Positions 15,343-18,286 of a stretch of 64,000 bases of DNA are shown in pieces. The notes below the pieces were generated by a model that saw only the letters and a program-made list of their open reading frames with translations, did no database searches and had not been told where the DNA came from. Each line of letters opens with the position of its first letter. The stretch's first letter is position 1. This stretch comes from Selenomonadaceae bacterium (GTDB lineage: Bacteria > Bacillota > Negativicutes > Selenomonadales > Selenomonadaceae), in the NCBI GenBank assembly GCA_017446845.1, contig JAFSOQ010000055.1, positions 983 to 64,982 on the forward strand, given 5' to 3'. Made by a program: the position numbers and the translations under genes.

Positions 15343-16231
15343 AATTTTAATCACGGCGCACATTCAGCCCGACGGCGACGCAATCGGCTCGACGCTGGCT
15401 TTAATGCAAATGCTCCGTTCAATCGGGAAGTCCGCGCAGATTTTCATTGACGATACCGTCAGAAAAAATTTGCACGCCTTGCCGCACTTTGAAGAAATTC
15501 GCCGACCGGAGGACGGAGAAAAATTCGACGCGGATTTAATGATTGTTTTGGACACTTCGATTGACAGGATTGGCGGCGTGAGAAAATTGACCGACGCGCC
15601 GATTTTGAATATTGATCACCACGTCACGAACAAAGGCGGCGATTTTGAACTTTACGTTGAGACGTCGGCGGCAGCGACTTGCGAAATTATTTTCAAGCTT
15701 GCCGCCGAACTCGAAGTTGAAATCACGCCCGAAATTGCCACGTGTCTTTACACGGGTTTGGCGACGGACACGGGCTTTTTCCAATTCTCGAACACTCGCG
15801 CGGAAACTCTTGCTACTGCCTCCGAATTGATTCGACGCGGTGTGAGTCCGCATTTTATTTCCGAACAGCTTGAGCAAAAATCTTTGTCGGAAGTGCGCGG
15901 GCTTAGTGCGGCTTTGAATTCGCTGAAAATGTTTTACGACGAAAAAGTTGCGGGCATGATTCTCGACCATGACACTGCGAAAAAATTTGACTCGACGGAA
16001 GGCTTTATCGATGAAATTCGCGTAATTGAGACCGTCGACGTGGCGTTTCTTATCACGGAAAAAGCTCCGAATTTTTGTCGCGTGAGCATGAGGTCAAAGG
16101 GCGTCAACGTTGCGCAAATTGCTGACAAACTCGGCGGCGGCGGACATATCAGAGCGGCGGGTTGCACGTTGAAAATGCCGCTTGACGAAGCAGAAAAAAT
16201 TTTAGTCGCGGCAATCGGCGAAGCGTTATGA
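15293..16231 (+). CDS. nrnA: DHH-family phosphoesterase NrnA (oligoribonuclease / pAp phosphatase)
   Basis: Motifs HIQPDGDAIGS, DHH (IDHHV), DTGFF and GGGH; ~310 aa. Confidence 0.85.
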   Translation: MMITLKEAAQKIKAANKILITAHIQPDGDAIGSTLALMQMLRSIGKSAQIFIDDTVRKNLHALPHFEEIRRPEDGEKFDADLMIVLDTSIDRIGGVRKLTDAPILNIDHHVTNKGGDFELYVETSAAATCEIIFKLAAELEVEITPEIATCLYTGLATDTGFFQFSNTRAETLATASELIRRGVSPHFISEQLEQKSLSEVRGLSAALNSLKMFYDEKVAGMILDHDTAKKFDSTEGFIDEIRVIETVDVAFLITEKAPNFCRVSMRSKGVNVAQIADKLGGGGHIRAAGCTLKMPLDEAEKILVAAIGEAL

Positions 16232-17085
16232 TTGACGGCTTTATAAATCTGAACAAACCTTCGGGCATGACGAGCCACGACGCAGTTAATCATGTACGGA
16301 GGATTTTTTCTACGCGCAAAGTCGGACATGCGGGCACGCTTGACCCTTTGGCGAGCGGAGTTTTGCCGATTGCGATTAATCGCGCGACAAAGTTTATCGA
16401 ATACGTTATCGACTGCTGCAAAAGTTATCGCGCGGAAATTTTATTCGGCACAGCGACGGACAGCGGCGACTTGGAAGGAAAAATTATTTCCCGCGCAGAA
16501 AATTTTCATATGCCGACAGTTGACGAACTCAACGACGCCTTGAAAGATTTTGTCGGTGAAATTGAACAGACGCCGCCGAAATTTTCCGCGATAAAAATTC
16601 ACGGGCGCAAAGCTTACGACCTTGCAAAAAAAAATATTGATTTTGAGATGCCGCGCAGGCTTGTAAAAATTTTTCGGCTGGAAGTTATCGCCTCGGATAA
16701 AAATTCTGCGACGATTGAAATTGATTGCAGCAAGGGTACTTACGTCAGAAGTTTGGCGATTGATTTGGGCGAGCGATTGAATTTGCCCGCGACGCTGAAA
16801 AATTTAATTCGGCTTCGAGTCGGCGATTTTGATTTAAAAAATTCTTTGACGTTCGATGAAATAAAAAAATTCGGCGAGGATTGTCTCCTGCCGATTGAAA
16901 ATTGTTTGAACCGCTTGCCGATATTTGAACTCGACGAACGAAGAATCCGCGCTTTCATGAACGGTTTGCCGACGAATGTTCGCGCGGCGGACGAAAAATT
17001 TTTGCGAATAATTTCAGGCGGAAAATTTTTGGGTGTCGGAAGAATTGAGGGCGGCGAGTTGCGGTCGTCAAAAATAATGTCTTGA
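16228..17085 (+). CDS. truB: tRNA pseudouridine(55) synthase
   Basis: GFINLNKPSGMTSHDAV...KVGHAGTLDPLASGVLPI contains the catalytic Asp motif. ATGA overlap with nrnA. Confidence 0.92.
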   Translation: MIDGFINLNKPSGMTSHDAVNHVRRIFSTRKVGHAGTLDPLASGVLPIAINRATKFIEYVIDCCKSYRAEILFGTATDSGDLEGKIISRAENFHMPTVDELNDALKDFVGEIEQTPPKFSAIKIHGRKAYDLAKKNIDFEMPRRLVKIFRLEVIASDKNSATIEIDCSKGTYVRSLAIDLGERLNLPATLKNLIRLRVGDFDLKNSLTFDEIKKFGEDCLLPIENCLNRLPIFELDERRIRAFMNGLPTNVRAADEKFLRIISGGKFLGVGRIEGGELRSSKIMS

Positions 17086-17110
17086 AAAATTTTTCGGCGT
17101 GTGATATGAT
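17082..17110 (+). promoter_or_regulatory. Strong sigma-70 promoter with extended -10, driving a short non-coding transcript
   Basis: TTGAAA (17082-17087), 17-nt spacer, TGaTATGAT (-10 at 17105-17110). It overlaps the truB stop codon. Confidence 0.6.
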
Positions 17111-17116
17111 TTACAA

Positions 17117-17222
17117 CGTTAAAAAGACAATTTTAATGGCAGGAGTTCGATGTTGATCCCGTCGACTCCTTCCTCGTTAATAGTTATCTGATTTCAGAGC
17201 CGTGGCGCGGCTTATTTTTTTC
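17117..17222 (+). ncRNA. Putative antitoxin sRNA (~105 nt) of a type I toxin-antitoxin-like module
   Basis: It starts ~7 nt after the -10. It has the hairpin AGGAGT...ACTCCT and an anti-SD stretch CTCCTTCCTCG. It ends in the terminator AGCCG-tggcg-CGGCT plus TATTTTTTT. It converges on, and overlaps, the 3' end of the minus-strand peptide gene. No plausible ORF. Confidence 0.45.
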
Positions 17223-17298
17223 CGTTGAAGTGGTCGATGAGCGAGAGGACGAAACTTCCGACCAAGCAAATGGGCTCAATCCAGTCCTTAATGTCCAT
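17212..17298 (-). CDS. 28-aa hydrophobic peptide, type I toxin-like (MDIKDWIEPICLVGSFVLSLIDHFNGKK)
   Basis: Own translation. The strong SD GGAAGGAGGTG lies 7 nt upstream. The central hydrophobic helix and C-terminal Lys-Lys resemble Fst/Ldr-type toxins. The 5' UTR can fold CTTCC-tcga-GGAAG over the SD. Not in the ORF track because it is too short. Confidence 0.45.
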   Translation of the reverse strand: MDIKDWIEPICLVGSFVLSLIDHFNGKK

Positions 17299-17357
17299 AC
17301 GCGTCACCTCCTTCCTTCGAGGAAGAAAGCCGACACATCGAACTGTCTGCCGCGCAG

Positions 17358-17386
17358 ATAATATCATTTCTTTAGAAATTTTTCAA
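17358..17386 (-). promoter_or_regulatory. Sigma-70 promoter for the toxin-like peptide mRNA
   Basis: On the minus strand: TTGAAA (17386-17381), 17-nt spacer, TATTAT (17363-17358). Confidence 0.55.
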
Positions 17387-17431
17387 GATAAAATTCAGCT
17401 GGTCAAATAACTTGCCTTGAGTATCGCGGGC

Positions 17432-17530
17432 TTAAAAAATTTTTCGTCATGTGATATGATTTTCTACGTTAAGAAGACAATTTTATCCATGACATCACCC
17501 CCTCTCTTGCGAGAGGAAGCCGAGCCGCTT
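17432..17530 (+). repeat. Degenerate, rearranged second copy of the TA-like module (sRNA promoter and 5' end fused to the antisense of a toxin-type leader)
   Basis: 17436-17486 repeats 17085-17135 (AAAATTTTTCG.C.TGTGATATGATT...ACGTTAA.AAGACAATTTTA). The minus strand then reads CTTCCTCTCGCAAGAGAGGGGGTGATGTCATGGATAAAATTGTCTTCTTAACGTAG. That is a leader plus SD plus an 8-codon ORF only. Confidence 0.5.
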
Positions 17531-17544
17531 TAAAAGCGGCGGAA

Positions 17545-17610
17545 CAACGACCGCGTTGTAGCGTTATCATAATTTTAAATTAATCGCCGCGCCTTCGACA
17601 GCCTCGCGAC
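17545..17610 (+). repeat. Probable copy (d) of the dispersed repeat family (same orientation as the copy at 47215-47305)
   Basis: TCATAATTTTAAATTAATCGCCGCGCCTTCGAC compared with 47260-47292 CGATAATTTTAACGTAGACGCCGCGCCGGAACG gives about 21 of 27 identities in the core, by eye. Confidence 0.35.
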
Positions 17611-17632: not shown

Positions 17633-18286
17633 TTGGTTACCGTCGTCATCACGATAAGCATATTTATCGGCTGCGTCATAGAATTTTGGGCGAATGATAT
17701 TCCGAGTCTCGCCGCGCAAGTTTTCGTTCAAGCGTTCGTGTTGAGTTTTATGATTTCCCCGCGCTCATTGGGCGACGCCGCTCGCGAAATTCATTTTTTA
17801 TTGGAGCAAGAAAATTTGGTTCGTGCTCGCGAAAAAGTCGGTTGGATTGTCGGGCGCGATACTCAAAATTTAAACGAGGCTGAAGTTGTTCGCGCCACCG
17901 TCGAGACAGTCGCCGAAAATACTGTTGACGGAATCATTTCGCCGCTGTTTTATTTTGCGCTCGGCGGTTTGCCGCTTGCCATTGCCTATCGCGCAATCAA
18001 CACCATGGATTCCATGCTCGGCTACAAAAACGAAAAATATTTTTACTTCGGGCGCGTGGCAGCTCGTTTCGACGACATTGCCAATTACATTCCCGCCGGG
18101 TTGACGGCTTTGCTTTTCATATGCGCGGCGATGATTTTGAACTTGGATTATAAAAATGCTTTTGAAATGGCAAAACGCGATGCCAAAAAACATCCGAGTC
18201 CGAACGGCGGCTGGGCTGAGGCGACTGTCGCAGGTGCGTTGAAAATTCAACTCGGCGGCACGAATTATTATTTAGTTAGGAGTTAG
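17633..18286 (+). pseudogene. cbiB: Adenosylcobinamide-phosphate synthase (CbiB/CobD) remnant, truncated at both ends
   Basis: Core CbiB motifs are present (GWIVGRDTQNL, TVETVAENTVDGIISPLFYFALGG, AYRAINTMDSMLGYKN, RFDDIANYIPAGLTAL, HPSPNGGW). The N-terminal ~50-60 aa are absent. The frame runs into the heptad repeat (..GGTNYYLVRS*) instead of the normal C-terminal ~60 aa. Confidence 0.65.

Follow-up and report, generated by a model that had tools for sequence, protein, structure and literature searches.

A candidate chromosomal type I toxin–antitoxin family of Selenomonadaceae: a TxpA-like peptide and a convergent small RNA with complementarity to the toxin Shine–Dalgarno region

1. Introduction

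Type I toxin–antitoxin (TA) systems of Gram-positive bacteria typically carry the antitoxin gene 3' of the toxin gene and overlapping it (T1TAdb, PMC8594479). Functional pairing outside the overlap is described only for Fst/RNA II and SprA1/SprA1AS (T1TAdb, PMC8594479). SprA1AS is a cis-encoded, 3'-overlapping antisense RNA that represses in trans; the part that binds the toxin ribosome-binding site (RBS) is its 5' domain, which lies clear of the overlap (PMC8309996). SR4 of Bacillus subtilis also affects the accessibility of the Shine–Dalgarno (SD) sequence, but from the 3' overlap (PMC8309996). The 'holin-like toxins' have been equated with the TxpA family (Fozo 2010, PMC2887945). Members of that family are TxpA/RatA, BsrE/SR5, BsrH/as-BsrH and BsrG/SR4 of B. 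subtilis, EF3263 of Enterococcus faecalis and SprG/SprF of Staphylococcus aureus. No report of a type I TA system in Selenomonas, Selenomonadaceae or Negativicutes was found in the searchable literature. The subject here is a small locus 3' of truB in a 64,000-nucleotide (nt) stretch of a Selenomonadaceae genome, referred to as the window (assembly GCA_017446845.1, contig JAFSOQ010000055.1, positions 983 to 64,982). The locus is probably a chromosomal type I TA cassette, in which a TxpA-like toxin mRNA would be controlled by a convergent small RNA (sRNA) through two contacts. Comparative analysis indicates that it belongs to a multi-copy, unannotated type I TA family of rumen Selenomonadaceae.

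2. Organization of the cassette

The proposed mechanism has five elements. (i) The minus strand would yield an mRNA at least about 140 nt long, encoding a single-helix membrane peptide of 28 amino acids (aa). (ii) A 53-nt leader hairpin would lock the SD and AUG of this mRNA. (iii) The plus strand would yield a convergent sRNA antitoxin of about 105 nt, transcribed from a strong promoter of the extended -10 type. (iv) In a first contact, the 3' terminator region of the sRNA, perfectly antisense to the toxin mRNA 3' end, would pair there as RatA and SR4 do, and would be likely to guide RNase III. (v) In a second contact, the sequence CGUCGACUCCUUCCU in the sRNA 5' domain would pair, away from the overlap and as in par RNA II and SprA1AS, with a region that takes in SD, spacer and AUG. 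The features concerned are as follows; ORF denotes open reading frame, SL1 stem-loop 1 and MFE minimum free energy.

17082–17110, plus strand: sRNA promoter, TTGAAA-17-TATGAT with upstream TG (extended -10); promoter scan 10/12.
17116–17221, plus strand: antitoxin-like sRNA of about 105 nt, its ends predicted from promoter and terminator.
17125–17143, plus strand: conserved sRNA block AAGACAATTTTAATGGCAG; alignments of 15 and 26 copies.
17139–17173, plus strand: sRNA stem-loop SL1; per-copy folds.
17160–17176, plus strand: CU-rich anti-SD segment CGTCGACTCCTTCCTCG; direct repeat, duplex energies and shuffles.
17166–17176, plus strand: CTCCTTCCTCG within the sRNA; window sequence.
17197–17221, plus strand: sRNA intrinsic terminator, a hairpin at 17197–17213 followed by ATTTTTTT; terminator scan and sequence.
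17212–17298, minus strand: toxin ORF of 28 aa, MDIKDWIEPICLVGSFVLSLIDHFNGKK, with ATG at 17298 and stop at 17214–17212; ORF list and BLAST.
17305–17311, minus strand: SD GGAGGTG, 6 nt 5' of the ATG, kept in all modules; sequence.
17293–17343, minus strand: leader hairpin of 23 pairs with cis anti-SD arm CUUUCUUCCU; MFE and covariance model R2.
17358–17386, minus strand: toxin promoter, TTGAAA-17-TATTAT with TG; promoter scan 10/12.

An initial annotation of this DNA had proposed much of this layout. Both promoters lie where it placed them, including the overlap of the sRNA promoter with the truB stop codon, which falls within the -35 box. The SD and the 28-aa ORF are likewise confirmed by sequence and ORF list. 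Three further proposals hold with corrections. The leader does fold over its own SD; its hairpin is far longer than the CTTCC/GGAAG core that had been described, comprises 23 pairs and takes in the AUG as well as the SD. The sRNA does carry an anti-SD segment, whose match consists of nine contiguous pairs, a bulge and two pairs and extends to a 15-nt repeat. A terminator stands at the expected place for the sRNA, while the claim that both transcripts share it is only half borne out, the U-run being on the sRNA strand alone.

The arrangement recurs throughout the family. Conservation covers the promoters of both strands and the SD, and the toxin promoter follows the pattern TTGAAA...TGATATATT. 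Every sRNA copy is preceded, at one and the same distance, by the same -35 and extended -10 elements. About 53 nt of leader separate the toxin promoter from the ORF on the minus strand. At the level of sequence, the convergent promoter and the terminator opposite the toxin 3' end are also conserved, with the U-run overlapping the last toxin codons. The promoter spacer of the sRNA gene contains a string of 14–17 nt around GAAAAATTTTTCG that has dozens of exact matches across the contigs of the same genome and resembles a promoter or UP-like element in general use in the organism.

3. The toxin peptide

Nineteen intact toxin ORFs of 25–31 aa fall into two classes. Class A has the form MD(I/F)xDW...VG(T)F(V/I)LALLTYFxGKK and includes the window copy. 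Class B has the form MDKFxWLxLxLSLIQTVLALLTFLK. Codon comparison indicates that the toxin ORF is under purifying selection. The ratio of non-synonymous to synonymous differences (pN/pS) is mostly 0.15–0.5 between close pairs, at pS of 0.4–0.7, and is 0.16 for the window peptide against its near relative L154c; two more distant class-A pairs, C29a–L106 and L106–L157, give 0.84 and 1.03. A hidden Markov model (HMM) of the family scores the window peptide at 56.4 bits in a six-frame search of its own genome, a figure to be read with the window peptide itself in the training alignment; the search found no further toxins in that genome.

The toxin appears to be a divergent Selenomonadaceae branch of the TxpA/Hol_Tox family, distantly related to its described members, with the window copy placed there through its relatives. 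Hol_Tox (PF16935, gathering cut-off 23.3 bits) ranks first among Pfam families for 8 of 19 module peptides from Selenomonadaceae that were scanned. The peptide of L122b, MEIYDWLDLIFSGGTFVLALLTYFKGKK, exceeds the cut-off (29.0 bits, E 9.8e-7), as does P0136 (24.5 bits). Sub-threshold matches are found for C13 (19.7 bits) and L065 (16.2 bits), and also for C118, L154a, L154b and L127. The window peptide aligns with L122b without gaps over 28 of 28 residues, at 50% identity and 75% similarity. The family profile in turn retrieves the Hol_Tox-passing proteins P0157 (41.5 bits) and P0155 (35.2 bits), the latter an NCBI entry named 'putative holin-like toxin [Lachnospiraceae bacterium]'. In hhalign the family matches P0157 with 95.7% probability.

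The initial annotation had called the peptide Fst-like. This label does not stand: no Fst_toxin match was obtained among about 29 peptides scanned (Pfam, E ≤ 10; one scan E ≤ 1). The Fst motif is APxxxG, with essential P and G (PMC8309996). The window peptide has the spacing P9-x4-G14 instead, and P9 is replaced by L in near-identical L154c. The profile links to Hol_Tox, together with the absent Fst matches, argue that the toxin is a divergent TxpA/Hol_Tox relative and not a relative of Fst. The other parts of that proposal fare better. The type I core of membrane peptide, convergent sRNA and anti-SD segment is strongly supported by comparative evidence, and the resemblance to par RNA I/RNA II is a fair one. 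Searches of PHROGs gave weak matches only, to unnamed families. One paralogue has a KdpF-like match of 14.7 bits against a cut-off of 57, which was dismissed as hydrophobic similarity.

A 16-member family profile run against 1.84 billion proteins retrieves 37 clusters, many with spurious N-terminal extensions through the leader, which is open in frame as ...RRKEVTRM-. No Selenomonadaceae-type entry among the profile matches bears a name. Gene callers over-extend the toxin ORFs upstream (library proteins P0123–P0157), and the window is a case in point: the mechanical ORF list gives 51 aa at 17212–17367, with a start inside the toxin promoter, and can be ignored. Given this extra ATG within the promoter, most public protein entries of the family are mis-started. 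Toxin ORFs that are missed or over-extended in this way could be corrected in annotations of rumen metagenome-assembled genomes (MAGs). The C-terminal Lys-Lys-stop of the window toxin (AAA AAA TAA, 17212–17221) is the complement of the sRNA terminator U-run. The K-rich tails of nearly all class A toxins may be due to this complementarity or may merely accompany it.

4. The leader hairpin and the small RNA

The leaders of all modules fold into a long hairpin, in which a CU-rich 5' arm lies on the SD and a further stem extends over the start codon. The window leader has an MFE of -27.8 kcal/mol and a z-score of -3.0, and six other copies have z-scores from -1.9 to -3.5. The R2 model, built from seven class-A leaders, finds 22 copies and matches the window at 17281–17353 with 100.6 bits. 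In the model-fitted alignment of these 22 related sequences, 91.8% of cells form standard pairs, against 44–59% with partners slid, and 8 leader pairs change on both sides (e.g. CG 11/UA 9 and UA 10/CG 8). Covariance models (R1 for the sRNA, R2 for the leader) were used because plain MAFFT alignments suffered register shifts between the two classes under RNAalifold. As the leader is predicted to lock both SD and AUG, the primary toxin transcript is probably not translated.

The antitoxin-like sRNA also forms a family. The window copy has an nhmmer family match of 1e-31 and a fold z-score of -2.7. Covariance model R1 finds 26 copies and matches the window at 17120–17186 with 75.1 bits. All copies have in common the -35 box, the extended -10, the AAGACAAYTTTAAWGGCAG block, SL1, the CU-rich segment, UUARU and the terminator. 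In SL1 of the window, GGCAGG pairs with CCUUCC and encloses a GUUCGAUG/CGUCGAC stem; in the family form, the outer pairing is GGCAGG with CCUxCC and the enclosed stem is GUCGRUG/CRYCGAC. Over the 26 related copies, fitted to the model, 92.4% of SL1 cells pair, against 42–69% when slid (92–94% over the alignments used), and 4 pairs are compensatory (e.g. AU 11/GU 8/GC 5). In Rfam, searched at a permissive threshold, the best match, with 16.2 bits and E = 4.6 where the gathering score is 50, is at the level of chance.

The block at 17125–17143 is the most conserved part of the sRNA family, with variants that include AAAGCAA, GAAGGTAA and AAAACAA. These near-invariant 19 nt are better conserved than the toxin ORF. 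The complement of the block was sought in the toxin mRNA, and only matches of 5–7 nt that are not conserved were found. On the toxin strand the block reads CUGCCAUUAAAAUUGUCUUUUU, immediately past the sequence complementary to SL1. The block could serve as a protein-binding site, or could mark the 3' end of the toxin mRNA in an unusual way.

5. Contacts between the two RNAs

The anti-SD contact can be read from repeats in the DNA. A direct repeat of 15 nt, 13 of them identical, occupies 17160–17174 and 17302–17316. The two copies would be transcribed in opposite senses, which gives sRNA and toxin mRNA complementary sequences around the SD. Likewise, an inverted repeat of 10 nt makes the sRNA and the toxin leader alike in the sense direction. 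The sRNA sequence 5'-CGUCGACUCCUUCCU pairs with 5'-AGGAAGGAGGUGACG of the mRNA, covering SD and spacer. The best local duplex takes in the AUG as well and has an energy of -31.4 kcal/mol; dinucleotide shuffles give -20.4 ± 3.6 kcal/mol and do as well in 4 of 500 cases. Across 21 modules, cognate pairs average -22.0 and non-cognate pairs -20.3 kcal/mol (permutation p = 0.0075). These comparisons use local windows, as full-length RNAduplex matrices do not discriminate cognate from non-cognate pairs. The cognate edge is mostly one of class A with A and class B with B, so cross-talk within a class is likely. Aligned in the sense direction, the sRNA 5' domain and the leader anti-SD arm score 12.8, against 3.9 for shuffles, and cognate pairs score above non-cognate ones (p < 5e-5).

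The 3' contact follows from geometry. The sRNA U-run is complementary to the codons for GKK and the stop of the toxin, with the terminator hairpin directly past that stop. The overlap may be about 30 nt only, and in class A it may comprise the last codons only.

Several points weigh against the proposed cassette or against parts of it. (i) The cognate advantage is small, 1.7 kcal/mol, and largely reflects the two classes. (ii) In the free sRNA the anti-SD segment is mostly paired within SL1. (iii) When co-folded, both full-length RNAs retain their own structures. (iv) The terminator scan finds a good terminator on the sRNA strand only; on the toxin strand no U-run follows the shared hairpin. 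(v) The covariation counts for leader and sRNA rest on related sequences and model-fitted alignments. (vi) The window peptide, MDIKDWIEPICLVGSFVLSLIDHFNGKK, has no Pfam match at E ≤ 10 and none in NCBIfam, its family membership being transitive. (vii) Some TxpA-like or candidate peptides are non-toxic in some hosts (Fozo 2010, PMC2887945).

Points (ii) and (iii) favour an explanation that dispenses with the second contact. The antitoxin might act through its 3' antisense overlap alone, by duplex formation, RNase III cleavage and decay, as RatA or SR5. The anti-SD match would then be an idle leftover of an origin from the toxin leader, or of conversion against it. We regard this as a real possibility, although not a probable one. 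It agrees with the action of known TxpA/Hol_Tox antitoxins by 3' overlap (T1TAdb, PMC8594479; PMC8309996), and with the likeness of the sRNA domain to the leader in the sense direction. Set against it is the possible shortness of the overlap. Moreover, the CU-rich segment varies with the SD class of the toxin beside it and is kept in 26 of 26 copies, orphans included. The computed energies also favour a contact at the SD: the SD arm alone is unstructured (-0.1 kcal/mol) and binds the sRNA at -31.4 kcal/mol.

With two contacts retained, the stability of the full-length structures in co-folds and the unstructured state of the lone SD arm suggest that pairing in trans would matter once the cis lock has been opened or trimmed. 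The likeness in sense between sRNA 5' domain and leader arm further suggests that the sRNA would then replace the arm in trans. As regards control of the SprA1AS type, in which the 5' domain would block the RBS in trans, SD complementarity and its class-wise covariation are seen here, and the anti-SD segment is partly buried in SL1. A bolder version, which we offer tentatively and with considerable doubt, makes the antitoxin an evolutionary and functional copy of the leader anti-SD arm, placed on the opposite strand and turned by a short insertion into a self-folding stem-loop. SD and AUG would then have two interchangeable locks. The cis arm would silence the primary transcript, and the sRNA would act in trans after loss or opening of the 5' arm, for instance through 5' processing. 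The natural variants of the family (two classes, orphans and dead copies) form a ready compensatory set for cooperation between the cis and trans anti-SD locks.

6. Copies and genomic context

The whole module recurs about 25 times at other places and in other genomes. The assembly that holds the window (2.19 Mb, 142 contigs, 45.8% GC) was searched by BLAST and nhmmer and contains four intact toxins, one decayed toxin, nine full sRNAs and one partial sRNA. Copies other than the main cassette are as follows.

C118: complete module, MDFFDWIDHISTVGTFIIALLTFFGKNK.
C13: complete module with GTG start, VDIFDWLQLFFTAGNFVLALIDYFNKRK.
C14 (47038–47579): three tandem sRNAs and MDKFNWLMLALSLIQTVLALLTFLK.
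C33: decayed copy with ATA start and a frameshift.
C99: orphan sRNA.
Window 17431–17570, no strand assigned: dead second module; 55-nt repeat, C14 match and partial nhmmer match.

The dead second module is a deletion remnant. Its sRNA gene keeps the promoter, breaks off about 25 nt into the transcribed part and leads straight into a class-B toxin's start codon, SD and leader. The sRNA portion, promoter and 5' end, is a 55-nt repeat at 17431–17485 (89% identical). The toxin part has a 42-nt exact match to the class-B leader of C14 and 8 remaining codons (MDKIVFLT*), and the nhmmer match is partial (model positions 1–56).

Elsewhere, about 20 further modules are present in Selenomonadaceae/Selenomonadales MAGs (L032, L033, L058, L065, L078 twice, L106) and in metagenome contigs that are probably from the rumen (L122 twice, L125, L127, L129, L136, L154 three times, L157). 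The DNA pattern used initially was too degenerate; its 117 loci are mostly chance matches, and only those in Selenomonadaceae/Selenomonadales are confirmed by nhmmer. Collections of viral contigs, phages and plasmids gave no real match, and hence no sign that a phage or plasmid carries the module. Some copies form tandem arrays: three sRNAs with one toxin in C14, three complete modules in L154:2438–3370, and mixed class A and B modules in L122 and L170:3854–4488. The arrays sit at intergenic hot spots common to species, namely uvrC/rnhA, a uxaA-like gene and the truB 3' end. Other copies also lie in gaps common to several species (uvrC/rnhA, upstream of the uxaA-like gene, near dhaK), where the cassettes differ. 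Toxins are dead or deleted beside intact sRNAs in C33, L058, L032, C99 and window 17431–17570, a pattern of decay typical of TA loci. In the bolder version given above, the near-invariant 5' block and CU-rich core common to all sRNAs mean that the 9–10 sRNAs of this genome could form one antidote pool for its four toxins. The sRNA copies could also serve as recombination handles for swapping cassettes at fixed intergenic hot spots.

The immediate neighbours in the window are truB (16228–17085, plus strand; ORF list, Pfam TruB_N 1.6e-53) and cobD (17633–18286), which lies 3' of the module. TruB homologues with names such as 'Selenomonadaceae bacterium' and Quinella place the host in Selenomonadaceae. 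The truB junction is variable. Contigs with an identical TruB (L167, L168) carry an identical module. Where TruB is 88% identical (L169) the site is empty and rpsB follows 108 nt past truB, and where it is 87% identical (L170) a class-B and a class-A module occupy the same junction. The cobD gene is a fragment that matches positions 51–254 of 282 in Pfam CobD_Cbib, its N-terminal part being absent from all frames. The same-species contig L167 has a 256-aa version of cobD and a different downstream gene (rubrerythrin). Fragmentary cobD and the differing layout in L167 suggest that the region beside the cassettes is rearranged. The variability of the site and the loss of toxins next to sRNAs that remain whole are in keeping with an accessory TA element.

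These patterns bear on whether the peptide is a toxin at all. It might be a non-toxic small membrane protein, such as a modulator of a membrane complex, under antisense RNA control and without a TA role. YhzE-2 provides a precedent, having an antisense RNA and no toxicity (Fozo 2010, PMC2887945), and the weak KdpF-like match of one paralogue points the same way. We consider this unlikely. Many paralogues at unrelated intergenic sites and in tandem arrays are not readily explained by it, nor is the repeated decay of toxin ORFs while sRNAs persist and outnumber the toxins. Translation is predicted to be double-locked, and the peptide has homology to a family with proven toxins.

It is extremely improbable that the structures are a cis-regulatory element of a neighbour (a truB 3' untranslated region, as the initial annotation had allowed, a cobD leader or a riboswitch) with a fortuitous small ORF: the location between truB and cobD and the promoter overlapping the truB stop would suit such an element, but no Rfam match was obtained, cobalamin riboswitches included, the same module adjoins unrelated genes elsewhere, the species with an 88%-identical TruB has rpsB after truB and no module, dead toxins lie beside intact sRNAs, the ORF appears to be under purifying selection, and cobD is here a truncated fragment.

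7. Comparison with known systems

Three described systems are closest. The par locus of plasmid pAD1 of E. faecalis (Fst, RNA I/RNA II) is similar in design, not by homology. In both, the genes converge around one terminator hairpin. In both, direct repeats in the DNA are transcribed in opposite senses, so that the antitoxin complements the start region of the toxin mRNA outside the overlap. In par, a structure at the 5' end of the toxin mRNA holds translation down, and the same is predicted here. Unlike in par, the peptide has neither an Fst_toxin match nor APxxxG, one CU-rich repeat takes the place of DRa/DRb, the U-run is on one strand only, and the module is chromosomal and was not found in plasmid or phage collections.

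SprA1/SprA1AS (PepA1) of S. aureus offers a second parallel. Its antisense RNA overlaps the toxin 3' end, and the 5' domain is complementary to the toxin RBS. The toxins differ, being TxpA-like here, whereas SprA1 is an Fst/Ldr homologue. The antitoxin domain here also differs from that of SprA1AS in being a sense look-alike of the anti-SD arm of the toxin leader.

With the TxpA family the cassette shares a single-helix toxin of 25–31 aa, profile matches to Hol_Tox, an antitoxin gene that converges on the toxin 3' side, a sequestered SD in the toxin mRNA, and chromosomal location in multiple copies. Unlike the established members, most of the peptides, including that of the window, fall under the Pfam cut-off. 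Their N-terminus is MD-x-x-D-W, in place of MS/T-x-Y/F-E. The sRNA is unrelated in sequence, matches no Rfam family, overlaps at most the last codons and devotes a separate domain, beyond the overlap, to the anti-SD match. Its host, a member of the Selenomonadaceae (Negativicutes), is also distinct. The family would thus extend the TxpA/holin-like toxins to Selenomonadaceae with very short peptides (25–28 aa). It would also add a new antitoxin RNA, with a recognition domain like that of par RNA II or SprA1AS and not that of RatA. A TxpA-like toxin combined with RNA control of the par/SprA1AS kind suggests that toxin family and control mode can be mixed and matched.

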